From Myxococcota bacterium (GTDB taxonomy: Bacteria; Myxococcota_A; UBA796; SXON01), in contig CAXNIN010000001.1 in assembly GCA_964202365.1 (NCBI GenBank), positions 1 through 52,848 on the forward strand: a DNA stretch of 52,848 nucleotides, in the 5' to 3' direction. A program made the position numbers and the translations under genes. Below are positions 24,642-41,452 of the stretch, piece by piece. The notes beneath the pieces were generated by a model. The model saw nothing but the letters and a program-made list of their open reading frames with translations. It ran no database searches and had not been told where the DNA came from. Each line of letters opens with the position of its first letter. Within the stretch, counting starts at the first letter, position 1.

Positions 24642-25889
24642 TCACGCGACCTCGGGGGCGTCGGCGCGCGTCCACATCACGACGCGGCCGTCACCGAGGC
24701 GGACACGGCGCTTCGCATACCCGAGGCGGCCGAGGATCGAGGCCACGCGCATCCCGTCGCGCTTCGTCTGGCGGGCGATCTCCACGGCGAGCGCAGCGCC
24801 CAGCACGTCCGCCACGGTGAACGGCTCCTCGCGCTCCCCGGCCCACTTCTCGATGGGGGCCTCCCAGGCGTCCACCTCGCGGTAGGGCTCGGACGCCTCG
24901 ATGCGCGCCTGCTCACCCTCCGGCGAGAGCCACCACGTCTCTCCCTGGTCGAACCGCCACCGGGCCTCGGCCCAGAGCTGGTCGCGTTCGGCCGCGAGCG
25001 CGTCGAGGTTGATCACCGTCACGGCGACCGGCCAGAAACGCCGGCTTCCACTTGGGTCGCGAAGAAATTCCGGCTCGTTGGTGGTGCCGACGAACACCGT
25101 CTGGCGGGGAACGTCCACCGTGTTGCGCCCGTAGGACGGGCGGTAGTGGTCGATCTGCGCGCTGATGTACGCCTTCACGGCGCTGGTCTCGGAGCGGCGG
25201 AGGCTGTCCAACTCGGCCAGCTCGAAGATCCACACGCCGGGGAGCTGCTGGTAGGCGTCCTTGCTGGCGAAGTCGATGGCGCTGTCGCTGAACCAGTCCG
25301 GCCCGGCAAGCGTCGCGAACGCGCGGCTCTTTCCGATGCCCTGCTGGCCAACGAGGATCAGCACGTTGTCCACCTTGCAGCCCGGCTGCATGACGCGGGC
25401 GACCGCGCCCACGAGGAAGGCCCGGCCGAACTCGCGGATGAGCGGCGTGTCCTCCGCGCCGCAGTGCTCGGTCAGCCAGGTCTCCGTGCGGACGACGCCG
25501 TCCCACGCGAGCGAGTCGAGGTACTCCCTCGGGCCGTGCGTCGGGTGCTGGTTGCCGACGTGGCGCACGGCCTCGCCGACGAGGGTGGATGAAGCACGGA
25601 TTCCGTACATGCGGGCGATCTCCAGGTTGATGGCGGTTTCGTCGTCGTCGCGGACGGGGCTGCCATCGACGACTGTGCGGAGGCGGAACTCGTCGCGCTG
25701 GCACCGACCCGAAAACTTGGGATCGCCCTCCAGGATCGTGACGAAGTTCAGGAGCGTCGCGAGCGGTACGCCGTCCCTGCCTTCCTCCAGCAGCTCGGCG
25801 ACGCCGGGGTGGGGGGCGACGGGCGTGACGCCCGCCACGTCCATCGACGGCGGAAGGTCACTGGACATCGACACCTCCGCACGCGGCAT
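24642..25889 (-). CDS. VirE-family P-loop NTPase (phage/plasmid primase-associated SF3-type helicase)
   Basis: 415 aa. Walker A 'LVGQQGIGKS', 'VWIFELAELD' (Walker B-like), 'FVGTTNEPEFLRDPSGSRRFWPV', typical of VirE/D5-like helicases. Start is ambiguous (ATG 25889, 25868 or 25844). Confidence 0.85.
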   Translation of the reverse strand: MPRAEVSMSSDLPPSMDVAGVTPVAPHPGVAELLEEGRDGVPLATLLNFVTILEGDPKFSGRCQRDEFRLRTVVDGSPVRDDDETAINLEIARMYGIRASSTLVGEAVRHVGNQHPTHGPREYLDSLAWDGVVRTETWLTEHCGAEDTPLIREFGRAFLVGAVARVMQPGCKVDNVLILVGQQGIGKSRAFATLAGPDWFSDSAIDFASKDAYQQLPGVWIFELAELDSLRRSETSAVKAYISAQIDHYRPSYGRNTVDVPRQTVFVGTTNEPEFLRDPSGSRRFWPVAVTVINLDALAAERDQLWAEARWRFDQGETWWLSPEGEQARIEASEPYREVDAWEAPIEKWAGEREEPFTVADVLGAALAVEIARQTKRDGMRVASILGRLGYAKRRVRLGDGRVVMWTRADAPEVA

Positions 25890-26760: not shown

Positions 26761-26912
26761 CGGCGACCTCCGCGACGGCCCTGCGGGCGGTAGGGGCAGG
26801 GCGGCGGGCCGACGTGCAGACCGCGCCGGTCGAACTTCGGCGGCGACGGCGGCTTGTGCGGCGAGGGCGGCCCCTTCGGGCTCGGGGGCTGCGCCGGTGG
26901 ACGCTTCTTCAT
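26757..26912 (-). CDS. Possible small Pro-rich basic protein
   Basis: 51 codons. ATGA overlaps at both ends (26909-26912 and 26757-26760) argue for translation. The Pro/Arg-rich composition could equally be a GC artefact. Confidence 0.3.
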   Translation of the reverse strand: MKKRPPAQPPSPKGPPSPHKPPSPPKFDRRGLHVGPPPCPYRPQGRRGGRR

Positions 26913-27136
26913 CGGGCACCGCCAGCGGCACGGGCGGCGGCTTCGTCTTCGCGGTGCCACGAGAGAAGCTCGCGGCAGAAGCCGAACAGGTTCGACCGCA
27001 TCGCGACGGCCCGGTCGCGCGAGATCCGTTCGTGGGTACGGGGCTGGAAGACCCGGATGATCGGGTCGAGGGACGGGTCGGCCGTCGCCGTTGAAGCGGG
27101 AATTCTGGCGCTTGGCAAAGGGAGCCTCTTGAGCAC
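26909..27136 (-). CDS. Possible small protein; first gene of the replication operon
   Basis: 75 codons with a GTG start at 27136. Partly balanced composition ('MRSNLFGFCRELLSWHRE'). ATGA-coupled to the next ORF. Confidence 0.35.
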   Translation of the reverse strand: MLKRLPLPSARIPASTATADPSLDPIIRVFQPRTHERISRDRAVAMRSNLFGFCRELLSWHREDEAAARAAGGAR

Positions 27137-27146
27137 CCCCTCTGGC

Positions 27147-27185
27147 GGTACCTTTCAGGTACCGGGCCGGTACATTCGGAGTACC
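27147..27185. promoter_or_regulatory. GGTAC(C) repeat cluster / hairpin; candidate operator or terminator between the defence operon and the replication operon
   Basis: ggtacc 27147-52 and ggtacc 27158-63 can form a 6-bp stem with a 5-nt loop. ggtac 27169-73 and gtacc 27181-85 form an inverted pair. The cluster lies in the 61-nt gap between stop 27198 and start 27136. Confidence 0.3.
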
Positions 27186-27197
27186 AACGTCAGCCCG

Positions 27198-29237
27198 CTA
27201 CGCCCCCAAGTCCCAGACGGTCGACGGCGACACGTAGCTCGGATGGATCCCGTGGATGTTCTTGATGTTCTCGCTCAAGTGTTGCACCAGGCCGCTGTTG
27301 TCCGCGAGCTTCTGGAACGCTGTCGCGATGTGCTTGCGGGTACGCTGCCGAGCGGCCTCCATAGCGGGGTTTTCCTTCTTGATCCGCCCCCCCGGTACCA
27401 CGCTCGCGTTCCGATAGGTGGCGAGTGCCGCCAGCTCACGCTTGATGTCGATGATGGCGTCGGCGTCGGTCATCTCCTCGGCCTCGGCCAGCTGCTCCTC
27501 CAACGCCTCCCGTCGCTTCTCCACGGCGCCGAGGGTCTTCGCGTCGGTCTTGTCGCCGAGGTCGCGGGTCGCCCGTCTCGGAAGCACGTTCCCAGCAAGA
27601 TCGAGCACGCTCACCCGCTTCCCGTTCGCAGCGAGCAGCTTGTGGAGCACTCCCATCCCCAACGTGTCTGGAATGTGACCACCGGGATCGCCAGGAAAGC
27701 AGATGAACCAGGTACTACCATCTTTCTTAAAGACGTGCGTTGTGGTTGCCGAACTCGCGGATGCTCCGGACTCGGGGCGGTCGCGGCCGATCAGCAGCAT
27801 CGGCAGAGAGGTCGCCGGAAGCCCGCGCGAGGTGATGCTTCGGCGTTGCTCGCCGAACACCCTGTCAAGCACGCCAGCGACGGTGTTCCCGTGCCGGCGA
27901 TGCAGATCGAAGAGCGCCCGCAGCGTCTCGTCGGTGCTGGGAACGGTGGCCTCCAGCGCCCCGCTGATCGCCCTGGCGGCTTCGCCAAAACTCTGGAGGA
28001 AGGTGGCAGGGTCCTTCATAGTCGCCCACCGGTCGGCGGCGTCCACGTAGGCGACGGCGTACAGGCGGTCGACCTCCTTCGCGATCGGATCGCTGAAGAG
28101 CTGGTGGCCGTAGGTCTTCTTGTCCTCCTCGAAACGCAGCCCGAGCGACTCCAGCGCGACCCGCCGATCAACGCATTGCGAGCAGATGCCACAGTGCGGC
28201 TCGTCTTTACTCCGGTTCGTGACGTGCGCGCAGCTATTGGTTGCCAGGATGGCGTGCGTCATCTCTGCGGGGATCAGGCGTCCAATCACCTCGGCGCGGG
28301 TCAGGTAGAGGAAGGGGTTCTCGATGGTGAAGGGCCGGTCAAACACGCACGACAGCAGCCGGGCGAAGTCGCGGATGCCAAGGGGGTGGGTCGTGCGAGA
28401 TGCGGCTGCGCCAATCACCTGCTGGGAGACAGGCAGGTTGAACGAGACAATACCATTCTCATAAAACGTGAACCGGTCCTTGCCCGTCAGCGCTGCCACC
28501 GCGCCTGCCAGGGCGGTGAACAGGAACGACCGGGTACGTTGCGAGCGCTCACGGTCCATGCCCTTGCCGTGCCGGGGCGTGCGGATCCCGACGCGTGCGG
28601 CGGTGAGGCCGGGGTACCGCTCGTTCAGTAGGCGCAGCGCGTTGTCCTGCGACGTGATCGGGATTGGCGACGGACGATGGCTGACGAAGATGACTCTCCG
28701 ACCCTGCGATAGCTGGTCCACGGCCCCTGAGAACGAGTCCAGCCCCCCAGAAAGAAGGGAGATGGAATCGACGTGATCCCACGGAAGGTAGGTCGCGCGG
28801 TCGGGCTGGCGAAGCGAAAGCTGGCGGGAGTCGCGCACAAGCCGGGGCACGAACTCGAATCCGAAGGTCTCGTCTGCGACAAATCCGAGCGCCCTGCAGA
28901 GGGTGTCGGTGACTTCGCGCTGCCGCCAGAATTCGACGTCGAGCACAGGAATTCGGAACTGCCAGTTTCTGTGCCAGGTCGCGCCGAGATTGACTGCGTC
29001 CAAGTCACCACGGAACACCATCCCGTCGGCGGTGAGCACGTACGCTGCGATCAGCAGAAGATCTTCAATGCGCGGCGGAAGTGTCCCGGTGAGGCACCGT
29101 TCGATCCCGTCGATACCGACGGTCAGATTGCAGCCGTCGGCAGATGTCGGTCCGGCGCGCACGCGGACGGCGTCCTCCGGTCCCGCGCCGGCCGCGAGCT
29201 CGCCGCAGAGAACCAGCCGCGTCCGGGGCTGGTTCAC
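27198..29237 (-). CDS. QueC-like PP-loop ATPase with extra N- and C-terminal domains (679 aa)
   Basis: GTG 29237 overlaps the upstream TGA (GTGA). PP-loop 'LLSGGLDSFSG' is encoded at 28734-28751. 'TRSFLFTALAGAVAAL...FYENGIVSFNLP' is also present. QueC-type Cys cluster 'SCAHV...HCGICSQCVDRR'. The N-terminal ~155 aa and C-terminal ~250 aa have no recognised motif. Confidence 0.8.
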   Translation of the reverse strand: MNQPRTRLVLCGELAAGAGPEDAVRVRAGPTSADGCNLTVGIDGIERCLTGTLPPRIEDLLLIAAYVLTADGMVFRGDLDAVNLGATWHRNWQFRIPVLDVEFWRQREVTDTLCRALGFVADETFGFEFVPRLVRDSRQLSLRQPDRATYLPWDHVDSISLLSGGLDSFSGAVDQLSQGRRVIFVSHRPSPIPITSQDNALRLLNERYPGLTAARVGIRTPRHGKGMDRERSQRTRSFLFTALAGAVAALTGKDRFTFYENGIVSFNLPVSQQVIGAAASRTTHPLGIRDFARLLSCVFDRPFTIENPFLYLTRAEVIGRLIPAEMTHAILATNSCAHVTNRSKDEPHCGICSQCVDRRVALESLGLRFEEDKKTYGHQLFSDPIAKEVDRLYAVAYVDAADRWATMKDPATFLQSFGEAARAISGALEATVPSTDETLRALFDLHRRHGNTVAGVLDRVFGEQRRSITSRGLPATSLPMLLIGRDRPESGASASSATTTHVFKKDGSTWFICFPGDPGGHIPDTLGMGVLHKLLAANGKRVSVLDLAGNVLPRRATRDLGDKTDAKTLGAVEKRREALEEQLAEAEEMTDADAIIDIKRELAALATYRNASVVPGGRIKKENPAMEAARQRTRKHIATAFQKLADNSGLVQHLSENIKNIHGIHPSYVSPSTVWDLGA

Positions 29238-30013
29238 TTCGCCCCCATCGTCAACTCGTCCCTGATCTTCTTCAGGGAGTAGGCGACGAATCGACTCGCG
29301 TGCTCCTCATCAAGCTTGCCCTCGAAGCGCGCCTTGGAGATCCATCCCGACGCGAACTTCTCCACGATCCGGGCGGCTTCCTGACAGTGTGTTCGCAGCC
29401 CTTCCTCGAAGGCTCGCTGGCCAGCCAACCCGGCGTGAGCCTGGTCGGGGCCGGAGTGCAGCGGGAGTTCGCGGGCGATGAAATGGGCGAGCGTCTTCTC
29501 GGTGAGCCGGGCGAAGAACGCGCGCGCAAGCCCGCCAAACTCCTTGTCCGTGGATCGCGCCGCCAATGCATCCTGCGCGCTCTCGACGTTCCGGTCGGGA
29601 AAGAGGCCCATCTTCCGCGGCTGGCTGAACTCGGCGAGCGTCTCGGCCGCCGCCATTTCCGCCATCTCGCCGAGCGCGGACCGCGACCCTTGCGAGGCCA
29701 CCCAGGCATCCACCGCGGTCGTGAGGCCGGAGGCGAGATCGGCAGCGGTGGGCGCAGCCGCCGCCACCGACACGCCCGCCTCGGACAACGCGGCGGCGAA
29801 GTTGCCCTCCTTCCGCGACGCCTGAGAAACCTGGAGAAGGAGCCAGAACGAGCGAACGAGGGCCGGATCATCCGAGAGCGCCTTCAGATTCTCTTGCACC
29901 ACGTCCATCGTGGCCGCCGCCACCTGCGACGCTTCCGCGCCCGCCCCCACGAGCGCGACGACCTGCTCCCACTTCTGCGACTTGGGCAGCGTGCCGAGGC
30001 GAACGTGGCCCAC
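29234..30013 (-). CDS. Hypothetical alpha-helical protein coupled to the QueC-like gene
   Basis: Start placed at GTG 30013, 31 nt after the Res stop. Upstream codons of track ORF 29234..30136 overlap the well-supported Res C-terminus. About 259 aa, Ala/Glu/Leu-rich. Its TGA overlaps the QueC-like GTG. Confidence 0.55.
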   Translation of the reverse strand: MGHVRLGTLPKSQKWEQVVALVGAGAEASQVAAATMDVVQENLKALSDDPALVRSFWLLLQVSQASRKEGNFAAALSEAGVSVAAAAPTAADLASGLTTAVDAWVASQGSRSALGEMAEMAAAETLAEFSQPRKMGLFPDRNVESAQDALAARSTDKEFGGLARAFFARLTEKTLAHFIARELPLHSGPDQAHAGLAGQRAFEEGLRTHCQEAARIVEKFASGWISKARFEGKLDEEHASRFVAYSLKKIRDELTMGAK

Positions 30014-30044
30014 TACGGCACCCGCGGGGGACGCGCGTCGGTGC

Positions 30045-33000
30045 TCACAGCGTCCCCTGCACCACGAGCACCTCGACGAACCGGGCGACGAACTTGAGTC
30101 CCTCCACTTCTGCCGGGAGCGGGCGGTGAGCGGCATTCGCGCTCTCGGGGCTCAGCCACGAGCGTCCTTCACGGTCTCGGGTCCAGCGTTTGAACGTGAA
30201 GCCTCCGAGTTCTGGGTCACCCGCCTCCTCCAGCCGTGCGATGAGCCGGTCCCCCAGGACCGCGGCCGCCACTGACGGTTCGCCGAAGTGTTGCCACAGG
30301 CACCAGGCGCCGTCGGGTGCCACCTTGTCCATCGAGTCGCCGATGATCTGGGCGGCAAACAGGCCCTTCCTCACTCGATGCGTGAGCACCTCGACGTAGC
30401 CCAGCAGCTCGGGCGGCTCGCCCGTGAGGAACGCTCCCGCCGCGGCTTTGAGCGAGTAGGCGGGCACGGCCACCGTGTTCCGGTCGTCCACGATCTCGTC
30501 GCGGCGAAGGAGCCGCAGCGCGGGCCGTCTCCCGGGCGTTGGGACAGGCAACGACTCCCACCACGCCTCGGTCTTGCCCGTCACCACGCGATAGTCGATG
30601 CCCAGGGCGGCGAAGTACCGCGCGGCGATTCGGACCTTCCTCCCCTCGTTGGCGAAGCGCAGCTTGTCCAACTCCACGCTGCCCTTCGTCTCTCGGACCA
30701 GCTCCAGACTTGGCGGCCCTCCGCCCGGAAGGCGAACGAGCCCCCAATCCGGGTTGTACTTGTGGATCACCTTCGGCATCTCGATCTTGAACTTCGGGGG
30801 GAACTTGAAATACACGGCGAGGTCGCCCGTGACCGGCTCCAGGCGACGCTGGACGAATTCTCGCTCAACGTCCGAGTCCACCTGAACGAGATCGTAGAGC
30901 GAGGCTGGACCGCCCTGCACCACTTCCTTCTGCGGATAGGGAATCGTCGGCGTGAGGAGGTCTTCCGGCCCGTGGGGATCTCCGAGCAGACCGCCCGCCG
31001 GGGTGTACCGCACACGGTCGGCAACGTGATCGGCCAACCCTTCGTTCACGCCGTCCACGAAGGTGTTCGCCCATCCCTCCGGGTTCTTGAAGATCCCCGC
31101 CTTCTTCTCGGGCAGAAGGCCGTCGAAGATGCGGATGAGCGTCTCCCGCGTCAAGAACGTCTCCTCCGCCGCCCGGGTGATGAAGTCGGGGACGGGCTGC
31201 CTCTCGGTCGCGATGCGCTGGTCGGGTGAGCGGACGTTGTCCACCCCGGTCGCCTGGAACGTGTACACCTCGCTCTCGCTGACCTCGACGTCGTTGGCGA
31301 ATCGGACCCGACGCTCGCCGAACTGGTCCCAAATCTTGGTGACTCGAAACCCCCGAAGCTGCTGGTTCTTCTTGCCGAGGTCGTTGCCGACCGCGACCGT
31401 GACCTTCCACTCATCCGGCTTCACGAACCCGAGCGTGACTTCCACGCCCGCCGAGGAACGCATCTCGATCAGGAGCTGCGCCTGGCCCGGGCCCGCGGAC
31501 TTGGCGACGCGGACAACGTACTCGGTCACCACGAAGCGACCCCGCGACACCGTGATGACGGGCTCCGGAAAACGAGCCGCGTTCAACCGGGAGATGCACT
31601 CGGCCACCAGCGCGTCCGTTTCGACCGCGAGGTCGTAGACGAGCCGCTGATTGAGGCGCTTCCAGAACACCTTGAACTCAGGAAGGTTGTACAGCTTCTC
31701 GCGGCGGCGGGCCGTCGCCTCGTCCTTCCTTTTCGGCGGCGGCGGCGGAGTCTCGCCGTCGTTGACGTAGTCTTGCTGAAGGTTGCGGACGTAGTTCTCG
31801 TAGCTTTCGTTGGCCACCACGGTGAGGACGTTGATGCTCGCGCCCTCGGGCCGGTTTCCCTTCTGGTCCACGCAGAGTCGGAGTCCGCGCCCGATCTCCT
31901 GGCGCTTCTTGGTGGTGCTCGTGGTCTGGTTCAGCGTGCAGATTTGGAACACGTTTGGGTTGTCCCAGCCCTCCTTCAGCGCGGAGTGCGCGAAGATGAA
32001 CGCGACGTTCTTCTTCTCCTCCTTCCCATCGGGAAATGAAAGCAGAATCTCCTTCTCCCGCATGATCAGGTTGAAGGCCGCCTTGACCGCTGCTCGCGCC
32101 TCCTCGGAATCGGCACCCTCGTCCTGAATGTAGACGTCGCGCTCCTGCTTGGTGTCCTTGTCCTTCTTCGTCGTCTTTGCGAAGTAGGCGGCTCGGACGT
32201 TCGCCGGTTCGAGGCCCGACCAGTGCGGCCGACCAACCTTCAGCTTGTTGAACGTCTCGTCGAAGAGGCGGCGGATCGTGCCGTTCTCATCGACGTAGTT
32301 GGCCACCCGGTCGATGAAGAACAGGGACAACACCTTCACGCCGCGCTCCCGAAGCTCGTCCTGACGCTTCATGTGCGCGACCAACGTCTCTTCGATCTGG
32401 GCTCGCCACACGTCCACGCGGCTGCCCACCACCTCGTCGTTGGTGGTGAGCGTCAGTCCGCCTTCGGAGCCGCCGAGGAGCTTGACCGAACTGGCCTTGC
32501 CCTCCGCGTCGTAGTTGATCTCCGCGACCTTCATCCCTTCGTGCTCCGCCAGCCCCGTGAGACGCATCAGGTCATCGTTCTGTCTGAGCGTCACCGACTT
32601 CTCGGCGGTCTTGCCGTCTACGAGCGTGAGAACCCGGACCTTGGCCGAGATCGGTGGGCCCCGGTGGACCTCCTCCAAACGAAGCAAATTCGCGGAAAGT
32701 GAGCCGAGTTGAGCCACGCCGACCACCTGGATCTGCTTGACCAATCCATGCCTGAATGCCTGGACGGGGGTGAGCCGGTACACGGGGTTCGGTTGCTGCC
32801 CCTTGCGGTGCGTGGCGGAGTACCGGAGAACGAACAGCGGCTTGAGCGTGCGGATCGCCTCCTTCGAGGCTTCGGACCCCATGTTCTGAGGTTCGTCGAG
32901 CACCACGACCGGCCTGGTGGCTTGCACCCACTCGAACGGCCTGCGCTTCCCCGTCAGCTTCTCGGTTCCCTTGTAGAAGTTTCGCGACGCGGAGTTGAAC

Positions 33001-33584
33001 GCCTGCTGGGTCATCACCATGATGATCGGGAAGGTGCTCTTCGCGAAACTCCCGATGCGAGCGATCTGCGCGCCGTCGTACTCGAACAGGTGGAAGTTGG
33101 TAACACCGTACAGCGCGGCGAAGTGGGCCTTGGTCACCTCGAAGCTCTTCTTCACGCCTTCGAGGATCGCCACGGAGGGCACGACGATGATGAACTTCCG
33201 CAGCCCGTACTTCTGGTACAGCTCGATCATCGTCCGGAAGTACACGTAGGTCTTGCCGGTACCTGTTTCCATCTCCAGCGTGAAGTGGTGGCACCGGTAG
33301 GAGTCGTTCGACACGCCGTTGAGGAGCGTCCCATCGTCGGGTTCCAGATTCCCGACGGGGACGAGAGCGTCCGGGTGAGCCTCGTTGTGGCGCTCCTGTA
33401 CCGCGCGCAGGTTCTCCTCCAGCCAGTAGTCAGCGAGGTCGTCGGCCTCCGGCGCGTTCGGGACGATTTCGTCGAGAAACGTCCCCAGCGCCGACTTGTC
33501 GAGGCCCACGAAAAGGTCCACAACGGCCGCGATGCCCTCGATCTGGTGGGGTTGGTTCGGAGAAAATGTGAATTGGAATGCCAT
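30045..33584 (-). CDS. Type III restriction enzyme Res subunit (SF2 helicase plus PD-(D/E)XK nuclease) with a C-terminal S24 (LexA/UmuD-like) domain
   Basis: ATG 33584 ('MAFQFTFSPNQ'), 10 nt after the Mod stop. 'LEMETGTGKTYVY' (motif I), 'VVVLDEPQNMG' (motif II), 'RQEIGRGLRL' (motif VI). Nuclease 'YNPDWGLV...LVRETKG'. C-terminal 'KAAAGAF...IIGDSMDKVAPDGAWCLW...FTFKRW'. Confidence 0.88.
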   Translation of the reverse strand: MAFQFTFSPNQPHQIEGIAAVVDLFVGLDKSALGTFLDEIVPNAPEADDLADYWLEENLRAVQERHNEAHPDALVPVGNLEPDDGTLLNGVSNDSYRCHHFTLEMETGTGKTYVYFRTMIELYQKYGLRKFIIVVPSVAILEGVKKSFEVTKAHFAALYGVTNFHLFEYDGAQIARIGSFAKSTFPIIMVMTQQAFNSASRNFYKGTEKLTGKRRPFEWVQATRPVVVLDEPQNMGSEASKEAIRTLKPLFVLRYSATHRKGQQPNPVYRLTPVQAFRHGLVKQIQVVGVAQLGSLSANLLRLEEVHRGPPISAKVRVLTLVDGKTAEKSVTLRQNDDLMRLTGLAEHEGMKVAEINYDAEGKASSVKLLGGSEGGLTLTTNDEVVGSRVDVWRAQIEETLVAHMKRQDELRERGVKVLSLFFIDRVANYVDENGTIRRLFDETFNKLKVGRPHWSGLEPANVRAAYFAKTTKKDKDTKQERDVYIQDEGADSEEARAAVKAAFNLIMREKEILLSFPDGKEEKKNVAFIFAHSALKEGWDNPNVFQICTLNQTTSTTKKRQEIGRGLRLCVDQKGNRPEGASINVLTVVANESYENYVRNLQQDYVNDGETPPPPPKRKDEATARRREKLYNLPEFKVFWKRLNQRLVYDLAVETDALVAECISRLNAARFPEPVITVSRGRFVVTEYVVRVAKSAGPGQAQLLIEMRSSAGVEVTLGFVKPDEWKVTVAVGNDLGKKNQQLRGFRVTKIWDQFGERRVRFANDVEVSESEVYTFQATGVDNVRSPDQRIATERQPVPDFITRAAEETFLTRETLIRIFDGLLPEKKAGIFKNPEGWANTFVDGVNEGLADHVADRVRYTPAGGLLGDPHGPEDLLTPTIPYPQKEVVQGGPASLYDLVQVDSDVEREFVQRRLEPVTGDLAVYFKFPPKFKIEMPKVIHKYNPDWGLVRLPGGGPPSLELVRETKGSVELDKLRFANEGRKVRIAARYFAALGIDYRVVTGKTEAWWESLPVPTPGRRPALRLLRRDEIVDDRNTVAVPAYSLKAAAGAFLTGEPPELLGYVEVLTHRVRKGLFAAQIIGDSMDKVAPDGAWCLWQHFGEPSVAAAVLGDRLIARLEEAGDPELGGFTFKRWTRDREGRSWLSPESANAAHRPLPAEVEGLKFVARFVEVLVVQGTL
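30048..30482 (-). other. S24 peptidase-like (LexA/UmuD-type) domain fused to the Res C-terminus
   Basis: The last ~145 aa contain: an 'AAAG' Ala-Gly candidate cleavage site (30435-30440); 'GDSM' with Ser at 30333-30335; and 'FKRW' with Lys at 30189-30191. The codons were checked against the plus strand. Confidence 0.65.
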
Positions 33585-33594
33585 CTCGTGCCCC

Positions 33595-35547
33595 CTACAG
33601 CGTCTTGACGCGGTTGAGGACGTCGGCGATGCGGACCTTGGTCCGGTCGGTGAGCGCGTGCTCGCGACAGACGAAGAGATCGTGCTCGAACGCGGCCAGC
33701 GCATCCACCGTCGCTCCGGCGATCTGGTCGTCGAGGCAGACGAGCAGCCGCGACGGGATCGACAGGTGCTCCACTCGGGTGACGACGTTGTCGAGGAACT
33801 CTGGCGCGGGCGAGCGTGCGGAGTCCAAGGGGTAGCCCTCCAGGAGCATCACCTCGACGAGGAGTCCGTCAGTGGTCCACCCCGCCATCAGCCCGTTCTG
33901 TGCGCGGAACAACGCAGTGAGCGTGAGGGCGTCCTCGCCGTCGTAGGGTACCCATCGCTGGACGTTGCTCCGGTCTTCGCGCAGAACGCGGAATCCGAAG
34001 TCGCCCTTCGGATTCTCCTTCTTGAGCTGCTTGGAGACGCGACGCAGGCGCTCCTTGGTGATCGCGTCGATGGTCTTCAGGCCCAGTGCGGCGGCGTTCT
34101 TCCCGGACTCGACTTCCTCGTTCACCTCCACGTCGAGCTGGACGAGGATGAAGCGCCGGTAGGTCGCGAACCTCTCATTCGCGAGCCAAACCCCGTGCCC
34201 GGTAGAGCCCGACCCGGCGAAGAAGTCCAGCACGATGTCATCGGGGCCGGTGAGATAGTCCACGAGGCGCGCCAGATCGTCGAACGGCTTCGGGTTGTCG
34301 AAAACCCGCTTACCTCCGAACAGGTCGTCGAATCGCTGCGCTGCGGTCTGCGCGTAGCTGTACGCCACGGAGGGGAGCACCTGAACCGCCGATTCGAACA
34401 GGTTGGAACGAACCCGGGGGACTGTCGTCTCGTCTGGCCCAAATACTACCCGACCTGCCGCTACCTCCTCCCAGAATCGCTCGGGCCGCGGGTAACGCCA
34501 TCCACTCCTGGGTTTCTTGCAGGACCGCTTCGTCGTCGGATGGATCACGTCATAGGTGGGGCCACCGCCGCCGGGCCAGTTGATGTTGCCATCGTCTCGG
34601 TACGGCCCGCGGTCGTCCACCTTGGTGTACCTCGCGAGGGGCTTCCGCGGATCATCGGCGGCAAGGCCATCGAGAAAGCTCTTCAGGCCCGTCGCGACCT
34701 TGGCCCAATCGCTCAAGTGCTGCGCCTTGAGGCGCTCGAATAGCTCCTTGACCTCCTCGACGCCCTCTTTGGGAGCACGGAGTTGGGTGTCAAGTTCGCC
34801 GAGCTTCTCCTTACTCTTGGCGTAGACCAGCATGTACTCGTGCCCGACCGAGAAAAACTTCGCGTCGTTCTTCCGATTCCGGTCCCACACCAACGTCGCG
34901 ATGAAGTTCTCCTCGCCCATGATGGCGTTGAGTAAGAGGCGGAGGTTCGCCACCTCGGCGTCGTCGATGCTGACGACGAGGAAGCCGTCGTCTCGAAGCA
35001 GATGCCGCGCCAACGAAACGCGCGGGTACATGAAGTTGAGCCAGTTCGAATGGAACCTTCCGCTGCTCTTCGGGTTGCTGGTGAGGCGACCGTGAAGGTC
35101 GGCCTGCCGCGTGTCCAACAGGTAGAGTTCGAGGTCAACCGCGAATTTGTCCTTGTAGACGAAGTCCTCGCCCGTGTTGTAGGGGGGGTCGATGTAGATC
35201 AGCTTCACCCTTCGGGCGTAGCTTTTCTGGAGGAGACGGAGGATCTCCAAGTTGTCGCCGACCAGCAGGAGGTTCTGCGTCGACGCCTCATCCACCCCCT
35301 CGCCGGCGAGCGGGCGGAGGGTCGCCGAGCCGGCGAGCGCTCCCAGCCGTCGAGCGGTCTGGTGCCCCGGCCAGGCGAGGCCATAGTGCTCGTCGTCCGC
35401 GCCGAAGTCCGCCGCAGTGCCCTCCAAAGCGGCGCGGAGGTGGTCCATGTCCACACCACCATCCGTGAACACCTCGGGAAACAGCTCCTGGAGCTGGGCC
35501 AACCGGCTGGCGTCAGGGGACTCGCGTTCGATTCGTTCAACGGGCAT
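33595..35547 (-). CDS. Type III R-M Mod subunit (beta-class N6-adenine/N4-cytosine DNA methyltransferase)
   Basis: ATG 35547 ('MPVERIERE') preceded by GGAG, 2 nt after the nuclease stop. 'LIYIDPPYNTGEDF' (motif IV DPPY) precedes 'VLDFFAGSGSTGHGV' (motif I), the beta-class order. Confidence 0.88.
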   Translation of the reverse strand: MPVERIERESPDASRLAQLQELFPEVFTDGGVDMDHLRAALEGTAADFGADDEHYGLAWPGHQTARRLGALAGSATLRPLAGEGVDEASTQNLLLVGDNLEILRLLQKSYARRVKLIYIDPPYNTGEDFVYKDKFAVDLELYLLDTRQADLHGRLTSNPKSSGRFHSNWLNFMYPRVSLARHLLRDDGFLVVSIDDAEVANLRLLLNAIMGEENFIATLVWDRNRKNDAKFFSVGHEYMLVYAKSKEKLGELDTQLRAPKEGVEEVKELFERLKAQHLSDWAKVATGLKSFLDGLAADDPRKPLARYTKVDDRGPYRDDGNINWPGGGGPTYDVIHPTTKRSCKKPRSGWRYPRPERFWEEVAAGRVVFGPDETTVPRVRSNLFESAVQVLPSVAYSYAQTAAQRFDDLFGGKRVFDNPKPFDDLARLVDYLTGPDDIVLDFFAGSGSTGHGVWLANERFATYRRFILVQLDVEVNEEVESGKNAAALGLKTIDAITKERLRRVSKQLKKENPKGDFGFRVLREDRSNVQRWVPYDGEDALTLTALFRAQNGLMAGWTTDGLLVEVMLLEGYPLDSARSPAPEFLDNVVTRVEHLSIPSRLLVCLDDQIAGATVDALAAFEHDLFVCREHALTDRTKVRIADVLNRVKTL

Positions 35548-35549
35548 TC

Positions 35550-36392
35550 CTAATCTCCGAGGTCCGCCGCCCGGTGGAGCGTCGGGAGGTTGGCTTCGAT
35601 CCATTCATCGCGCTGCTGGTCGGCGCCGAAATCCGACATCGAGGTGGCGAGTACGGTGTCGGGCCGCGCGCCTTGCTGCGCGCGCAGCACGAACTGGCGG
35701 TAGCTCGTGCAGGAGAACCGCACGTCGCAGTTGAGGCACACGTCAGTCCCGAAGGGCACGCGACCCCCGGGCCGCGAGGGGCCGCGCAGGACGTCCACCG
35801 GTGGCGGCTTGAAGTCGTGCGCCTCGATGGCATCGACGACCCGCCCGAAGTCGGCCACCACGTCCGCGACAATCTCCTGCCGCACCTCGATGTCGAGCAC
35901 CGGCTGCCAGGTCGCCATCGCGGCCTCGATGCGCTTGGGGTCGCCGGTACTGATGGCGTGCTTCAACGCCCGCGGTGGGCGGGTTGCGATGACGGCGACC
36001 TTGTTGAGCGGCTGGCTTCGGAGGGTCTGCCAGATGTGCGCGTAGAGGTTGAGCTGCCGGTAATGCGGCTCGACGTGCTCCCGCGCCGCTTCGGCATCGA
36101 GATAGGTTTTCAGGTCGTACATCGTGGCGGACTCGTCGTCCCGGACGATGTCTACGATGCCTTCGAGGGTGTACCTCCGCCCCGCTGGGCTGCGCTGCTC
36201 CGGAAGGGTCAGCCGGACTTCGGTCTCAGTGACGGTCTCCGCCAGCTCGCGAAGGCGGCGCCAGTAGAGGAGCACCTGCTCCAACGCCGACGCCTTGACG
36301 TCGGGCGTCACCGCACGCCCCGTCTCCTCGCGAAGTCGCTCGAAGTTGGCCTCGAATGCTTCGAGGATGAAGCCCTCCAGGTCATCGGTCAC
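35550..36392 (-). CDS. PD-(D/E)XK nuclease, Cas4/RecB-like, with a C-terminal CX2CX5C cluster
   Basis: GTG 36392 overlaps the UvrD-like TGA (GTGA). 'LEGIVDIV', 'MYDLKT', 'YRQLNLYAHI' (D / D-x-K / QxxxY). 'CLNCDVRFSC' is encoded at 35709-35738. Confidence 0.7.
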   Translation of the reverse strand: MTDDLEGFILEAFEANFERLREETGRAVTPDVKASALEQVLLYWRRLRELAETVTETEVRLTLPEQRSPAGRRYTLEGIVDIVRDDESATMYDLKTYLDAEAAREHVEPHYRQLNLYAHIWQTLRSQPLNKVAVIATRPPRALKHAISTGDPKRIEAAMATWQPVLDIEVRQEIVADVVADFGRVVDAIEAHDFKPPPVDVLRGPSRPGGRVPFGTDVCLNCDVRFSCTSYRQFVLRAQQGARPDTVLATSMSDFGADQQRDEWIEANLPTLHRAADLGD

Positions 36393-38968
36393 GGTGCGGC
36401 TCCTTCCGCACGCGCGGCGATCAGGCGGTTGTGGAGGTCCTCGATCGTCTGGTGGACGAGGCTTCCGAAGAACATGCTCTGCGTACGGCTCGGCGCGAAC
36501 CCGTACTTCCGGAACAGCATGTATTGGCGCGGGCAGCGAAGGTAGCCGAGGTAGTCCCCGGTGTAGCTGAACGCGCGTGCGACATCCCCGATCTCTTCCT
36601 TTGCGGCTGGAATAGCGCCGATATCGAGATCGGGAATTCGCCGAATGTCCCCACCGAGGATCTCGCGAAACGCCGGGTCAACCTGCTGGCCGGCGCCCAC
36701 GAGATGCGGCAAGACAAGCAGGTTCTTCGCCCGGGAGAGCGCCACATAGAACATCCGCATCGCGTCAAAGTCTCCCATGCGGTCGAGCGGCTCGCCGCCC
36801 GCGCGCCCGAACGGGCGGACGATCTCCTCCACGCGCCGCACGCGGCGGTTCGCGGGCCGGACGTTGCCGAGCACGACGACCGGGAACTCCAACCCCTTCG
36901 CCTGGTGCACTGTCAGAAACGGGATGCGCCCCTTGGGGAAGGGATCGTCAGCGTCCTCGTACTCACCCTCGCCGAGACGGAACAGTGCGAATAGAAAGCC
37001 AGCGTAGAAGGTGCCTTGCAGGACGCCGCTCTCGACGGCGCTCGCTGTCACCACGGAGGGGAACGTGTCGATGTAGCGGGCGAGGTATCCGCTCGTCAGC
37101 GCGAGGTTGCAGACCGGGCCCTCGTCGGTCCCGACTTCGGCAAGGTCGAACATCGCCTTGAAGTGGTCGAAGCCGACGAGGCGGTAGAAGATGTCGAGCA
37201 CTCCCCAGTCCACCGAGGTGGCACGGTTCAGAATGTACTGGAGCGACAGCGGTTCGCCCCGTGTCAACCGGTCCTCCGCGATCCGGTCGAGGTAGCTGGT
37301 CCCGATCCCCCGCTTTCCCCGATCCGACAGTCCGCCCGCCGAGAGCAGCGCCCGCTTGTGGATGCTCGGCTGGTACGGCGCTGTCAGGGACCACTTCTTG
37401 GCCTCCACCGCTTTCACCAGCGACGCATAGTCCTTGCGGATCGTCAGCAGTTCGGCCTGCCGCTCCTTCACGAAGGCGGCGAGCCGGGCATCGGACTTGA
37501 CGAGCGCGTGGGCCGCGGTTCCACAAGCATCCAGCCAGTCGTGGAAGTCTCGGTAGCCGCCCTTGTTGAACTCCTCGTCTCGGGGGGGGCGGCCGAGGAC
37601 CATTCCGAGCAGCCCCACCACGGCGGTGGGCTCCTCCGCCTCGAGGAAGCGCTTGGCCCGCGGCGCGTAGATCTTCAAGCCGTGCTGTTCAAGGGCGGCC
37701 TGCAGGCGTCCGACGGCCACGCTTTTCAGGGACGGGAAAAGGACCGCGATTTGGTTCGGATCGGCCACCCGCTTCTTGCGGATGAGCCCGTGGATCAGCC
37801 CGGCGAGTTCGGCCGCGACCTCCTCTGGGCCGCCGGGCGTGCTCGCGACGACCGCCACGCCCCGGTCGACGCGGTGGGCATGGATCCCCTTGTCGTGCAG
37901 CCGAAAGGAGCCGCCGCCTGGCCTTGACCAGTCTGCGCGTTCCATGAACTGCGTGTACAGACCGACGATCTGGTCCCGCGAGCGGTAGTTCGTCGCCAGC
38001 TCGATCCGCCTCGGGGCGGTCGAGAGCTTGGCGACGCACCGCTCCGGGAACTGGACGAAGTTCTCCACAGTCGCGCCTCGGAAGCGGTAAAGCGCCTGGT
38101 CGTCGTCGCCGACTACGCAGAGGTTCTTGCTCCCCGCGGCGAGTTGGAAGAATAGCAGCTCCTGGATCGCGTTGGTGTCTTGGTACTCGTCCACGATTAC
38201 GTGGTCGAACGGGGTGTTCTCGCCCGCAGCCCCCCCGAGCGCCGAATACGCAGCCTGCTGGAGCAGGGCGAGGTCCACGCGCTTCGAGCCGAGACGGTCG
38301 CGGTAGAGCGCGTACAACTCGACGAGGGAACGCGCGTCCTCCCCAACCTGCGCGAGCAGGGCCTCGGGCTGGAGGTTCTCCTCCGAGAACCGGTTGAACA
38401 GCGCGAGCAGGTTGGACACAGCCTTGTGCTTGCTCGGCGTGGCGCCCTCCTCGAACTCGCTATTGATGCGCTCCCGAAGGGCGGGCAACTCGCCTTCGTG
38501 AGCGAGGCGCTCCACGGCTGCGCGCCAGAATCCCCCCGCCGCCACGAGGAAGTATTGGTCGAGCGCATCCACCACGGCGGGCGCGACGACACGAGAGCGC
38601 CCATCCGAGAGCTGACGGTCCCGAATCAGCCGGTGGCAGAGCGAGTGGACAGTTCCGACGTACATTTTTGAGAGGTCGAAGGTTCGGCCAGTCCGGTTGG
38701 TCACGAGCCCGAGCAGCGAGATCAAGCCGTCCTTGAGCTGCTTCGCGGCCTTCTCGGTGAACGTGCTGAGGAAGATGCGCTCGGGGGCGATGCCGTGGAC
38801 GACGATGAGGTTGACCGTCCGCCAGAGCAGCACTCGCGTCTTCCCCGATCCCGGGCCCGCGACGAGGAAAAGGGGGCCATTATCGTGGAGGATTGCGGCG
38901 AGTTGGTTCGCGTTGGGGGTGAAGTCCGCAGCTTGGAACAGCTCGGACAGCAAGGGGTCGGTATTCAT
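36389..38968 (-). CDS. UvrD/Rep/PcrA-type SF1 DNA helicase
   Basis: ATG 38968 ('MNTDPLL') overlaps the TGA of the upstream gene (ATGA). 'LFLVAGPGSGKTRVL' (Walker A), 'HVIVDEYQDTN' (motif II), 'ATNYRS', 'LTVHQAKGLEFPVV', 'MFYVALSRAKN'. Confidence 0.9.
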   Translation of the reverse strand: MNTDPLLSELFQAADFTPNANQLAAILHDNGPLFLVAGPGSGKTRVLLWRTVNLIVVHGIAPERIFLSTFTEKAAKQLKDGLISLLGLVTNRTGRTFDLSKMYVGTVHSLCHRLIRDRQLSDGRSRVVAPAVVDALDQYFLVAAGGFWRAAVERLAHEGELPALRERINSEFEEGATPSKHKAVSNLLALFNRFSEENLQPEALLAQVGEDARSLVELYALYRDRLGSKRVDLALLQQAAYSALGGAAGENTPFDHVIVDEYQDTNAIQELLFFQLAAGSKNLCVVGDDDQALYRFRGATVENFVQFPERCVAKLSTAPRRIELATNYRSRDQIVGLYTQFMERADWSRPGGGSFRLHDKGIHAHRVDRGVAVVASTPGGPEEVAAELAGLIHGLIRKKRVADPNQIAVLFPSLKSVAVGRLQAALEQHGLKIYAPRAKRFLEAEEPTAVVGLLGMVLGRPPRDEEFNKGGYRDFHDWLDACGTAAHALVKSDARLAAFVKERQAELLTIRKDYASLVKAVEAKKWSLTAPYQPSIHKRALLSAGGLSDRGKRGIGTSYLDRIAEDRLTRGEPLSLQYILNRATSVDWGVLDIFYRLVGFDHFKAMFDLAEVGTDEGPVCNLALTSGYLARYIDTFPSVVTASAVESGVLQGTFYAGFLFALFRLGEGEYEDADDPFPKGRIPFLTVHQAKGLEFPVVVLGNVRPANRRVRRVEEIVRPFGRAGGEPLDRMGDFDAMRMFYVALSRAKNLLVLPHLVGAGQQVDPAFREILGGDIRRIPDLDIGAIPAAKEEIGDVARAFSYTGDYLGYLRCPRQYMLFRKYGFAPSRTQSMFFGSLVHQTIEDLHNRLIAARAEGAAP

Positions 38969-39354
38969 CGGCGGGTTTGTGCGCGCCAGAGGCTCCACGC
39001 CGTCGCCGCAGTCACGGGACCCCACCCGTGCACCGCGGCCAGCTTCGTCTTGAACTCGGCCTCGCGGCCCGCGCTCGCGAGGGTCGGCAGGCCGTCGAGT
39101 AGCCCCTTGGAAACGGCCTCCATGAGCTGCTGGTGGCGGTACCAGAGGATCGGGAGGAACCCGCCCCGTGCGTAGCCGGCGTCCGTCATCGCTGCGATCA
39201 GCGCGTCCCTGTCCATGCCCGCGGCGCGGGGTGCATCGAGCAGCCCCCGGGTCTGGAACGCCGGGAGCAGGGCGGCCGCCCGGTCGGTGCCGAAGCCGTT
39301 GACGGCGAGCATGGCGGTCACCAGGTGACCAATCTGTTCGGAAGTTAGGGACAT
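38965..39354 (-). CDS. Small helix-hairpin-helix protein resembling the N-terminal part of HhH-GPD (EndoIII/OGG-type) glycosylases but lacking the catalytic loop
   Basis: ATG 39354 ('MSLTSEQIGH'). 129 aa, helical. HhH-like 'LAAVHGWGPVTAATAWSLW' lies ~7 residues from the C-terminus, so no GPD/Asp segment follows. First gene of the coupled operon. Confidence 0.45.
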   Translation of the reverse strand: MSLTSEQIGHLVTAMLAVNGFGTDRAAALLPAFQTRGLLDAPRAAGMDRDALIAAMTDAGYARGGFLPILWYRHQQLMEAVSKGLLDGLPTLASAGREAEFKTKLAAVHGWGPVTAATAWSLWRAQTRR

Positions 39355-39427
39355 GGGGCTTCGAACCAGGAAAGAGATGGTGTCGGGGCGGCGAGGGGGC
39401 TCGCGGCGGCGGGGGTGGAGAGCGTCG

Positions 39428-39637
39428 TCATGCGGCACCGCCCGGCCCGCGGCCACGGGATGCCTCGGCGTTGCCGGCGCGCACCCACTCGTCCACCTCG
39501 GCCCGCTTGAACTTCCAGAACCGGCCGACCTTGTGCGCTGGCATCGAGCGGTCGGCGATCCAGGAGTACACGGTGTCGCGGCTGACCCCGAGGTACTCGG
39601 CAATCTCGTCCACGTTCAGCCACCGGTCGTCGATCAC
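39428..39637 (-). CDS. Excisionase-family (HTH_17/MerR-like) DNA-binding protein
   Basis: 69 aa. 'WLNVDEIAEYLGVSRDTVYSWIADRSMPAHKVGRFWKFKRAEVDEWV' is the classic excisionase-type winged HTH. Divergent from the integrase gene. Confidence 0.85.
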   Translation of the reverse strand: MIDDRWLNVDEIAEYLGVSRDTVYSWIADRSMPAHKVGRFWKFKRAEVDEWVRAGNAEASRGRGPGGAA

Positions 39638-39784
39638 GCGCGCTCCGCAACGGGCGAGAGCGTACCGGCGCAGCGAACGCGGGTCAACCCGGTCGAACCG
39701 GAATAGTATGGGGTTAGCCGGAGTCAGGGCGTGCTAACCCGCCCGCCTTATGGCAACTTGATCCGGCCCAACTCGGAGTAGTCG

Positions 39785-41452
39785 ATGCCCCCCCGCCGAA
39801 ACGCCGCGAACAACCGCAAGACCGCTTCCCTGGGCTCGGACGGGCCGCGTCCGTTGCGCGCGCCCGCCAACGGCACCCCCGCGCTCCCGCCGCGCACCTC
39901 CGTCGTCCTCTACACCCGCGTGTCCTCGAAGGACCAGGAGAAGGAAGGGTTCAGCATCCCGGCGCAGGAGAAGCTGCTCCGCGCTTATGCCGACGACCAC
40001 ACGATGCGCGTCGCCGGGGAGTACAGCGACGTGGAGACGGCGAAAAAGGCAGGTCGTACCAACTTTGGCAAGATGATCGCCTACCTGAAGAAGCACCCCG
40101 ACTGCCGCACCATCGTCGTGGAGAAGACCGACCGGCTGTACCGCAATCTCAAGGATTGGGTCGAACTCGACGCCATGAACCTGGAGATCCATCTCGTGAA
40201 GGAGAACATCGTGCTCTCCGAGGGCTCGCGCTCGCACGAGAAGTTCATCCACGGGATCAAGGTGTTGATGGCCAAGAATTACATCGACAACCTGTCCGAA
40301 GAGACGAAGAAGGGGATGCTGGAGAAGGCGGCGCAGGGCATCTGGCCGGGCGCGGCCCCGCTCGGCTACCGCAACGTCGAGGGCCCCCACGGCAAGCGCA
40401 TCATCGACGTGGACCCCGTGGCCGGGCCGCTGGTGTCGAAGATGTTCGAGCTGTACGCCAACGGCGAGATGAGCGTGAAGGCGCTCGCGACGTGGGGAAA
40501 GGCGAACGGGCTGCCTTTCAAGCGGTCGCACGCCGAGGTGCCGATCTCGTCGGTCCACTCGATGCTCTGCAACCTGCTCTACACCGGCGAGTACACCTGG
40601 GACGGCACCCTGTACCGGGGCACGCATCCAGCCCTCGTCTCCCGCGAGCTGTGGGAGCGCGCACAGGACAAGATGGCCAGCCGGAACCCCCACTCCAGGC
40701 ACGACACGAAGCTCAGCTTCGCCTTCTCGGGGCTGGTGCGATGCGGCACCTGCATCGACGAGGGCGGCAGCGAGCGGCGCCTGCTCATCGGCGAGATCCA
40801 GAAGGGTCGGTACATCTACTACCACTGCGCGGGGTGCCAGCACCAGAAGCGGGCGGTGTACGTCAGGGAGGAGGTGATCGAGGCCGAGGTCCAGCGCGCG
40901 CTCCGTGCCCTCCACATCGATGACGAGGTCATGGCGATGGTGCGCGAGGGCCTGCGCGGGAGCCACCACGACGAGCAGCGGTGCCACCACGAGGCCACTC
41001 AGCGTCTCTACAAGCAGCACGAGACTCTCCAGAAGCGCATCGACCTCGCCTACGAGGACCGCCTGGACGGCCGCATCACCGCGGAGATGTTCGAGCGCAA
41101 GTCCGTGGAGTGGCGGGCCGAGCAGGGCCGCGTCCGGCGCGAGCTGGAGCGGCACGAGCAGGCGAACCAGTCCTACATCGACGAGGGCCTCGCACTCGTG
41201 GAGGTCGCGAACAAGGCCGCGGAGATGTACGTCGGCCGAACGCCCGAGCAGAAGCGACGCCTGCTGAATTTCGTCCTGTTGAACTCGACGTGGCGCGGCG
41301 GCGCGCTCGAAGTCGAGTGGCGAGAACCCTTCAATCTACTTGCCGAATCCATCGCCGTGTGCAAGGCACATGACGCCGCCAGCGTCGCAACCGGCGGCGT
41401 TCGTCCAAAATGGCTCCCGCTCCCTGACTTGAACAGGGGACCCACGGATTAA
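39785..41452 (+). CDS. Large serine recombinase (integrase)
   Basis: 555 aa. 'VVLYTRVSSKDQ' (catalytic Ser), 'VVEKTDRLYRN', recombinase domain 'GAAPLGYRN', zinc ribbon 'VRCGTC...YYHCAGC', then a long coiled-coil. The last 14 codons are antisense to tRNA-Asn. Confidence 0.92.
   Translation: MPPRRNAANNRKTASLGSDGPRPLRAPANGTPALPPRTSVVLYTRVSSKDQEKEGFSIPAQEKLLRAYADDHTMRVAGEYSDVETAKKAGRTNFGKMIAYLKKHPDCRTIVVEKTDRLYRNLKDWVELDAMNLEIHLVKENIVLSEGSRSHEKFIHGIKVLMAKNYIDNLSEETKKGMLEKAAQGIWPGAAPLGYRNVEGPHGKRIIDVDPVAGPLVSKMFELYANGEMSVKALATWGKANGLPFKRSHAEVPISSVHSMLCNLLYTGEYTWDGTLYRGTHPALVSRELWERAQDKMASRNPHSRHDTKLSFAFSGLVRCGTCIDEGGSERRLLIGEIQKGRYIYYHCAGCQHQKRAVYVREEVIEAEVQRALRALHIDDEVMAMVREGLRGSHHDEQRCHHEATQRLYKQHETLQKRIDLAYEDRLDGRITAEMFERKSVEWRAEQGRVRRELERHEQANQSYIDEGLALVEVANKAAEMYVGRTPEQKRRLLNFVLLNSTWRGGALEVEWREPFNLLAESIAVCKAHDAASVATGGVRPKWLPLPDLNRGPTD

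Follow-up and report, generated by a model that had tools for sequence, protein, structure and literature searches.

A LexA/lambda-CI-type S24 domain at the C terminus of a type III restriction subunit is one member of a module family on restriction and defence enzymes

Why would a restriction endonuclease end in the kind of domain with which LexA and lambda CI cut themselves? The question is raised by a gene on contig CAXNIN010000001.1 from a Myxococcota bacterium (assembly GCA_964202365.1), of which positions 1 to 52,848 were analysed and are referred to here as the window. The gene, res (30045..33584, minus strand), encodes the 1179-residue restriction subunit (Res) of a type III restriction-modification (RM) system, as assigned from Pfam, PADLOC and the recorded product. 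An earlier note, made from the sequence alone, had read the C-terminal end of Res as an S24 domain with LexA-like catalytic residues. Three questions follow: whether this identification holds, whether the fusion is peculiar to one enzyme, and what it could mean for the control of restriction.

Identity of the Res tail

The last ~155 residues of Res are confirmed as an S24 domain of the LexA/lambda-CI type, and sequence and predicted structure indicate an apparently active copy. The domain covers residues 1023-1177 (30054..30518, minus strand), as delimited by the envelope of the family hidden Markov model (HMM; 1063-1217 of the open reading frame [ORF]) together with PF00717, Foldseek and hhalign. 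Throughout, Pfam residue numbers refer to the 1219-residue ORF and catalytic residues to the 1179-residue protein. Pfam Peptidase_S24 (PF00717) matched the Res tail alone with E = 1.1e-3 (19.0-19.3 bits, profile positions 6-115 of 116), and it also matched 11 of 12 close relatives of the tail, the best at 9.5e-11. Within the wider family described below, 50 of 65 long and 79 of 83 short representatives matched at the E-value limits used, with a best value of 4.6e-16. When the family profile was aligned by hhalign with reference sequences of E. coli LexA, lambda CI and UmuD, the probabilities were 95.4% for LexA (E = 1.9e-8), 89.7% for CI and 89.8% for UmuD. An AlphaFold2 (AF2) model of the domain had a mean predicted local distance difference test score (pLDDT) of 83.8 and a predicted template-modelling score (pTM) of 0.79. 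In a Foldseek comparison of this model with the Protein Data Bank (PDB), the 23 best matches were all C-terminal domains of lambda CI or LexA, each at a probability of 1.00; signal peptidase I, a sister family in clan SF, ranked next. Lambda CI (PDB 2HO0, 1KCA) was the best structural match, with E = 2.6e-5 and a target-normalised TM score of 0.71; the LexA domain (MEROPS S24; PDB 1JHC/1JHF/7OCJ/8GMS) shares the fold. The S24 domain claimed by the earlier note was therefore borne out by the Pfam matches of its relatives, by profile alignment and by the model, and the comparison of profile and structure that the note had named as a possible refutation returned the S24 fold.

Against this assignment stands the Pfam score of the Res tail itself, which at 19 bits lies under the PF00717 gathering score of 23.3. 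In addition, phmmer searched with the single tail sequence returned nothing but noise from the PDB (CobT 0.13, Cas1 0.38). Both results would fit a chance resemblance to S24 proteins, or a degenerate remnant that has lost S24 function. A 12-sequence profile searched against PDB sequences was borderline, its best match being M. tuberculosis LexA at E = 0.06; no NCBIfam model, including that for LexA, matched the tail, and PADLOC gave nothing beyond REase_III. The profile comparison, the fold and the conservation across the family are all opposed to a fortuitous or decayed resemblance, which we find scarcely credible.

The hhalign alignments placed both members of the proposed Ser-Lys dyad at the catalytic positions of LexA, CI and UmuD. 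The nucleophile would be Ser1084 of the GDSM motif (codon TCG, 30333..30335, minus strand), which aligned with LexA S119, CI S149 and UmuD S60, and the general base Lys1132 of FTFKRW (codon AAA, 30189..30191), which aligned with LexA K156, CI K192 and UmuD K97. The candidate scissile bond, Ala1049-Gly1050 in LKAAA-GAF (codons GCG-GGA, 30435..30440), corresponds to LexA A84-G85 and CI A111-G112. Against LexA, the three registers read KAAAGAF with RVAAGEP, GDSM with GMSM, and FTFKRW with VTVKRL. The motifs of CI are almost identical to those of Res: YPVFSHVQA-GMFSPE beside VPAYSLKAAA-GAFLTGE, GNSM beside GDSM, and FTFKKL beside FTFKRW. The codon positions given in the earlier note for the site, the Ser and the Lys all match the sequence, and its Ser and Lys passed the alignment check that it had proposed. 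S24 proteins are cut at an Ala-Gly or Cys-Gly bond about 34-37 residues before the Ser, and Ala1049-Gly1050 lies 34 residues ahead of Ser1084; the spacing from P1' to Ser is likewise 34 in LexA, 35 in UmuD and in the family median, and 37 in CI. From Ser to Lys there are 48 residues in Res, with a family median of 45, compared with 43 in CI and 37 in LexA. By fold, dyad and cleavage-site position, as judged from alignment and model, the Res tail belongs to family S24. Pfam found no helix-turn-helix (HTH) in the N-terminal 1000 residues of Res, which hold the ResIII helicase and RE_endonuc domains. Lacking a DNA-binding domain, the protein is not a LexA orthologue: unlike LexA, whose S24 domain follows a winged helix, Res carries a 1000-residue helicase-nuclease as its N-terminal cargo, and the tail is only ~20% identical to LexA.

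Conservation was counted over 158 alignable domains, which comprised the top 150 representatives (at most 50% identical) and the first-round homologues. Ser and Lys were invariant wherever the region was present. The P1-P1' pair was Ala-Gly in 132 domains, Ala-Thr in 19, Ala-Ser in four, Cys-Gly in one and Ser-Gly in one, while P2 was Ala in 141 of 141 and P3 was Ala, Val or Ile. The alignment indicates that the dyad and the LexA-type site are under strong purifying selection across the clade. A different use of the fold has to be weighed at this point, namely as a non-cleaving scaffold that serves mainly for dimerisation or for binding the RecA filament, for example by pairing two complexes of Res with its methyltransferase Mod, with cleavage rare or irrelevant. 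LexA, CI and UmuD have C-terminal domains that are established dimerisation modules, with dimers seen in PMC9926225, and the main enzyme classes that carry the module (types I, ISP, III and IIG) all need two cooperating complexes to cut. The ~15% of modules with Thr or Ser at P1' also fit a scaffold.

These 23 modules are a difficulty for autoproteolysis, the more so as they include the closest full-length Res relatives (P0017, L003, L005 and L007), of which P0017 (MDX2023273.1) has an Ala-Thr site. LexA is reportedly stringent at P1', and its G85D variant is non-cleavable. By the LexA rules, then, modules with Thr or Ser at this position are expected to cleave poorly. Even so, the Thr-P1' clade and the Ser-P1' modules retain both Ser and Lys. 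Were the domain purely a scaffold, one would expect loss of the dyad and the Ala-Ala-Gly site; instead, both have been kept among diverged members. Together, the invariant dyad, the prevalence of Ala-Gly and the LexA-like distance to the Ser favour autoproteolysis over dimerisation alone, and we consider a mainly structural role unlikely.

A module family on restriction and defence enzymes

The earlier note dealt with the S24 tail of a single type III enzyme; one correction is that the tail is no oddity of that enzyme. With the 12-sequence profile as query, a set of 1.84 billion representatives (clustering at 50% identity) yielded 1737 matching proteins at E <= 1e-3, of which 816 reached E <= 1e-10. 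The S24 module was nearly always C-terminal. Among 65 long representatives, the most frequent partner domains were Type_ISP_C (10), ResIII (9), the SLFN-g3 helicase (7), N6_Mtase (6) and Eco57I (5), followed by the HsdR C-terminal domain, RE_endonuc and the MrfA Zn domain (4 each), and by Methylase_S and SNF2 (2 each); AlwI, LlaJI, the MmeI methyltransferase, PLD, HNH and one subtilisin were also present. The module is found on type I (HsdR, HsdM and HsdS), ISP, IIG and III enzymes, on Mrr, AlwI and LlaJI, and on defence helicases and nSTAND3 proteins. Only five of 83 short representatives, many of which are contig fragments, carried an HTH. Given this partner spectrum and the rarity of HTH domains, the clade is a module of restriction and defence enzymes rather than of repressors, and Res-S24 is one instance of a large family spread over many enzyme classes.

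The fusion in Res is not an assembly artefact, because intact ORFs are present in the independent assemblies L003, L005, L007 and L010. Between the S24 domain of the window and its counterpart in P0001, a helicase fusion of the YprA/DUF1998 type, identity is 53%, compared with 46% and 42% for the Res-borne domains of P0019 and P0017. In contrast to these tails, the Res bodies are 50-54% identical. That the S24 domain is more similar to one from another enzyme class than to these Res-borne copies, while the Res bodies agree, points to exchange of the module between enzyme classes. Individual inspection confirmed fusions of a C-terminal S24 domain to the type I methyltransferase HsdM in P0024, P0026 and P0027. 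Two further arrangements were observed: in P0037, a Res-like helicase-nuclease, the S24 domain is internal and a subtilisin (S8) domain comes after it, and P0030 has tandem S24 domains, of which the first is degenerate (GNAL/LTIRRL).

In database records, fragments are named "LexA" or "phage repressor", and a full-length example is a "DEAD/DEAH box helicase family protein". We considered whether the short "stand-alone" S24 proteins are independent genes and rejected the idea, as those that could be placed are fragments, miscalled starts or remnants. L009 is a fragment at a contig end, P0012-P0015 have their start called at the Met of GxSM, and L001 and L008 are frame-shifted or remnant copies. 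In L001 (7940-8003), Res and S24 lie in different frames, with a shift near 7947-7952; in L008 (2041-2672), UvrD residues 25-119 are joined directly to the C-terminal half of S24. In tblastn searches with the tail, none of 50,697 phage records matched, and the 72,556 plasmid records yielded one weak match, which is unannotated and lies on a Halomonas chromid (L011), where a Schlafen-type helicase ORF and an S24 ORF overlap in different frames (4959-7429). A scan of genome contigs with one peptide pattern found eight close relatives, a number limited by that pattern; an exact-match search of contigs for the Res of the window gave no hit.

The Res body, its cassette and the surrounding island

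A single unbroken ORF on the minus strand (30045..33704) encompasses Res. Translation probably does not begin at its upstream in-frame ATG (33704) but with MAFQFTF at 33584, yielding the 1179-residue protein; the homologue P0019 begins at the same MAFQF, and an identical 1179-residue product is recorded in NCBI/ENA. For the neighbouring mod gene, the likely start is Met20 at 35547, since tblastn alignments begin from residue 20. The longest res and mod ORFs extend upstream into the preceding genes (33585..33704 and 35548..35604, respectively), and the homologue alignments and the recorded gene call place the real starts at 33584 and ~35547.

Apart from its tail, Res appears from its sequence to be a normal and active type III subunit. 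Pfam found ResIII, DEAD and RE_endonuc domains in the ORF, and PADLOC matched REase_III at 1.3e-165. The SF2 helicase/ATPase core (32808..33296, minus strand; ResIII, residues 137-299, E = 2.1e-13) has the Walker A motif METGTGKT and motif II LDEPQN, and the PD-(D/E)XK endonuclease domain (30579..30902, minus strand; RE_endonuc PF19778, residues 935-1042, E = 2.1e-21) has YNPDWG and VRETKG. Together with an adjoining type III Mod, these are the hallmarks of a type III Res, and they are shared with canonical enzymes such as EcoP15I and EcoP1I (PRK15483, REase_III). Canonical Res models, by comparison, have 986-989 residues and end at the nuclease, without an S24 tail. Res scored 273.5 bits against the NCBIfam equivalog PRK15483, compared with a cut-off of 564, and covered only model positions 5-578; it is therefore a divergent Res and not an EcoP15I equivalog. 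An AF2 model of the C-terminal 300 residues was weaker (pLDDT 68) than that of the S24 domain. Its low-confidence stretch, at Res ~1005-1022 (model residues 126-143, pLDDT <50; 30519..30572, minus strand), is predicted to be a flexible linker that probably joins the nuclease to the S24 domain.

Res-S24 closes a four-gene cassette that also encodes a UvrD-like SF1 helicase, a Cas4/RecB-type PD-(D/E)XK nuclease and Mod, all on the minus strand. The helicase gene comes first (36389..39025; UvrD-helicase, 5.7e-51, and UvrD_C). It is followed by the nuclease gene (35550..36392; PDDEXK_1 positions 66-246, 3.4e-9; PADLOC Cas4) and by mod (33595..35604), which encodes a type III N6/N4 DNA methyltransferase with DPPY and FAGSGS motifs (N6_N4_Mtase, 9.7e-30; PADLOC MTase_III, 2.1e-150). 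The UvrD-like helicase and the Cas4-like nuclease are extra to the canonical type III pair of Mod and Res. The order and sequence of the cassette are kept in L001, L003 and L007, from Myxococcota and "Deltaproteobacteria" metagenome-assembled genomes and a JGI metagenome contig, where the counterparts are 60-61% identical for the nuclease and 59-62% for the helicase. Two polypeptides appear to share the RecB/Cas4-type nuclease between them. The helicase tail (residues 828-871) matches PDDEXK_1 positions 10-56 and holds the cysteine of "RCPRQY", the next ORF holds D..DLK, QxxxY and CxxCx5C, and the two ORFs overlap in GTGA. As the split is kept in L001, L003 and L007, an iron-sulfur cluster may bridge both chains.

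Three other genes were tried as parts of the system and rejected, as none is conserved beside the cassette: a downstream ORF of about 260-300 residues (29234..30136, minus strand), the QatC-like gene that it precedes (27198..29237, minus strand) and the ORF at 38965..39603. The QatC-like PP-loop protein has a long C-terminal extension and scored 185.7 bits against NCBIfam QatC (cut-off 280) and 7.6e-52 in PADLOC; QatA, QatB and QatD were not seen. Elsewhere, Res cassettes are not accompanied by this pair, which therefore probably forms an unclassified two-gene defence module of its own.

The cassette lies in an island of 69% G+C with a large serine recombinase and a tRNA-Asn at one end, beyond which are the housekeeping genes PGI and CobW. 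The 3' end of the recombinase ORF (39785..41452, plus strand) overlaps the tRNA-Asn (41411..41487, minus strand), and the region 39785..41487 is likely to be the integration border of the island. A VapE-like gene (24642..25889) and a defence-type fusion of an Eco57I-like methyltransferase to a SNF2/ResIII helicase (1740 residues; 5959..11181, minus strand) are located on the same island. A promoter and terminator scan of 26900..39800 gave fewer matches than shuffled sequence.

A possible link between DNA damage and restriction

What would self-cleavage do to such an enzyme? We propose that a catalytically competent S24 autopeptidase is tethered by a disordered linker to the PD-(D/E)XK nuclease, and that it would cut its own chain at Ala1049-Gly1050 by means of Ser1084 and Lys1132. 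Unaided, this reaction would probably be slow, as it is in LexA, CI and UmuD, and it would probably be stimulated by docking within the groove of a RecA-ssDNA filament (RecA*) when DNA is damaged or when the enzyme has cut the host chromosome. Cleavage would separate the enzyme from its 130-residue S24 core, which in LexA and CI is a dimerisation module, and would leave Res(1-1049) with the end Leu-Lys-Ala-Ala-Ala-COOH, resembling the ClpX degron of the LexA N-terminal fragment. With Ala always at P2 and Ala, Val or Ile at P3, cleavage across the family would produce the new C terminus -[AVI]-A-A, similar to the VAA end of LexA. A passage in PMC5742171, which cites Neher 2003, places ClpXP C-degrons beside the cleavage site of LexA-like proteins. 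Restriction would then be down-regulated while the chromosome is repaired, which would amount to restriction alleviation encoded by the enzyme itself and to a fuse that guards against autoimmunity by negative feedback. We hold the view that RecA*-stimulated cleavage detaches the S24 core and shuts down restriction upon DNA damage to be evenly poised between right and wrong.

The precedent in type I systems is one of function. There, host proteases shut off restriction and so prevent self-restriction, with ClpXP acting on EcoKI HsdR and Lon-like proteases acting in P. aeruginosa. As in our proposal, the shut-off is post-translational and occurs when the chromosome is at risk; the difference is that in Res both protease and sensor would be built into the enzyme. 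The mechanism is biologically plausible because the partners of the module are overwhelmingly nucleases and RM complexes able to harm the host, and also because the helicase-nuclease pair of the cassette is AddAB/RecB-like, a kind of enzyme that makes substrates for RecA loading.

Whether RecA* could dock on the module can be judged in part from the cryo-EM structures of Gao et al. 2023 (PMC9926225), which show a hydrophobic pocket that accommodates RecA F203, along with an acidic patch immediately ahead of the Lys strand. The pocket is lined by F111/L113/V153 in LexA, F141/L143/F189 in CI and Y52/L54/F94 in UmuD, and the LexA patch for RecA* docking is D150-E152. In our alignment, the residue at Ser-8, which in LexA is the pocket Phe, is Phe in 158 of 158 domains, that at Lys-3 is Tyr or Phe in 155, a DPE/DPD motif occupies Lys-10..-8, and at least two acidic residues precede the Lys strand in 155. 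The positions that contact RecA* thus appear to be partly conserved in the clade.

Several observations weigh against the proposal. The position of LexA Leu113 is Ala in 142 of 158 domains, Res included, and a conserved insert (xGG, within DPExGG) ahead of the Lys strand shifts the acidic patch by ~3 residues; for both reasons, RecA* docking is not assured. IrvR (PMC7101444) provides a precedent for RecA-independence, and by analogy it is possible that the S24 domain of Res operates without RecA. The module is also found on HsdM and HsdS, and losing such a subunit would put an end to protective methylation too. Beyond the fold, the dyad and the site, cleavage and all that follows from it are what we infer from sequence, and the direction of the effect, off or on, cannot be read from it.

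The opposite direction is represented by UmuD. UmuD shares the S24 core, with its dyad in register, and has no DNA-binding domain; it demonstrates that S24 can regulate a non-repressor and that cleavage can alter activity rather than merely destroy it. By analogy, the S24 domain might inhibit or sequester Res or its complex as in a pro-enzyme, and a signal arising in infection, for example RecA* on ssDNA of the phage or on intermediates of replication, would trigger self-cleavage and free a fully active nuclease. The structural evidence for a competent S24 domain serves this explanation equally well, the activation of UmuD by cleavage is established (Gao et al., PMC9926225), and excerpts of the literature describe defence effectors as commonly activated by proteolysis. 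The module is also present on non-RM defence NTPases (SLFN-g3 helicase, nSTAND3, SNF2), which are usually triggered by infection. However, UmuD loses a 24-residue arm, whereas the "arm" of Res is an entire restriction subunit, and an -Ala-Ala end on the enzyme looks more like a tag for degradation than like the terminus of a mature protein. A trigger is not required by classical RM enzymes, whose activity is constitutive, and activating a nuclease during the SOS response would endanger a chromosome that bears unmethylated repair tracts. The placement on HsdM and HsdS is also hard to square with autoinhibition of a nuclease. We therefore regard activation by cleavage as rather unlikely.

UmuD also cleaves in trans within dimers (PMC9926225), which raises the prospect that the S24 domain of Res is a protease for some other protein, such as a phage anti-restriction factor, the product of a neighbouring gene or a partner subunit. 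The same chain contains, upstream and at the canonical distance, a conserved site of the LexA type, and no neighbour outside the cassette is conserved; a trans-acting protease is accordingly a very improbable account.

To return to shut-off by self-cleavage, the distribution of the module bears on what would be its target. A module that has been shuffled onto many enzymes seems to act on the whole complex and not specifically on a type III nuclease, and its presence not just on nuclease subunits but also on HsdM and HsdS argues in the same way for action on the complex rather than on the nuclease active site. In lambda CI, where the S24 domain belongs to an HTH repressor, cleavage inactivates repression; here the domain sits on an enzyme. 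More tentatively, and with doubts that outweigh our confidence, we suggest that the module is a portable RecA*-sensing fuse on types I, ISP, IIG and III, on Mrr and AlwI/LlaJI enzymes and on YprA- and Schlafen-type helicases, which would destroy or uncouple the enzyme once the DNA of the cell is damaged or self-cut.

The S24 family and type III enzymes are both well known; their combination, and the large clade of restriction and defence modules, appear to be new. The literature on BREX, YprA, Schlafen, defence islands and His-Me, in which subscription journals were thinly covered, yielded no S24 or LexA-like domain on restriction enzymes. A 2025 RM review mentions neither S24 nor LexA and gives nothing for type III that is equivalent to type I alleviation. 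The distribution of the module suggests an as yet undescribed coupling between DNA cutting and DNA-damage signals. How a host survives restriction during damage and repair is understood for only some type I systems, through removal of HsdR by ClpXP or Lon-like proteases. If the proposal is true, a built-in self-cleavage of the LexA type would link the RecA/SOS signal directly to restriction, in type III and many other classes, and SOS-coupled restriction alleviation encoded by the enzyme itself would be a widespread and previously undescribed phenomenon. Because the module is present in at least 1737 sequence clusters, an answer for Res would generalise. Such a domain would also serve engineering as a natural, portable switch for damage-responsive degradation, and it would take the biology of the S24 family further than repressors and UmuD.

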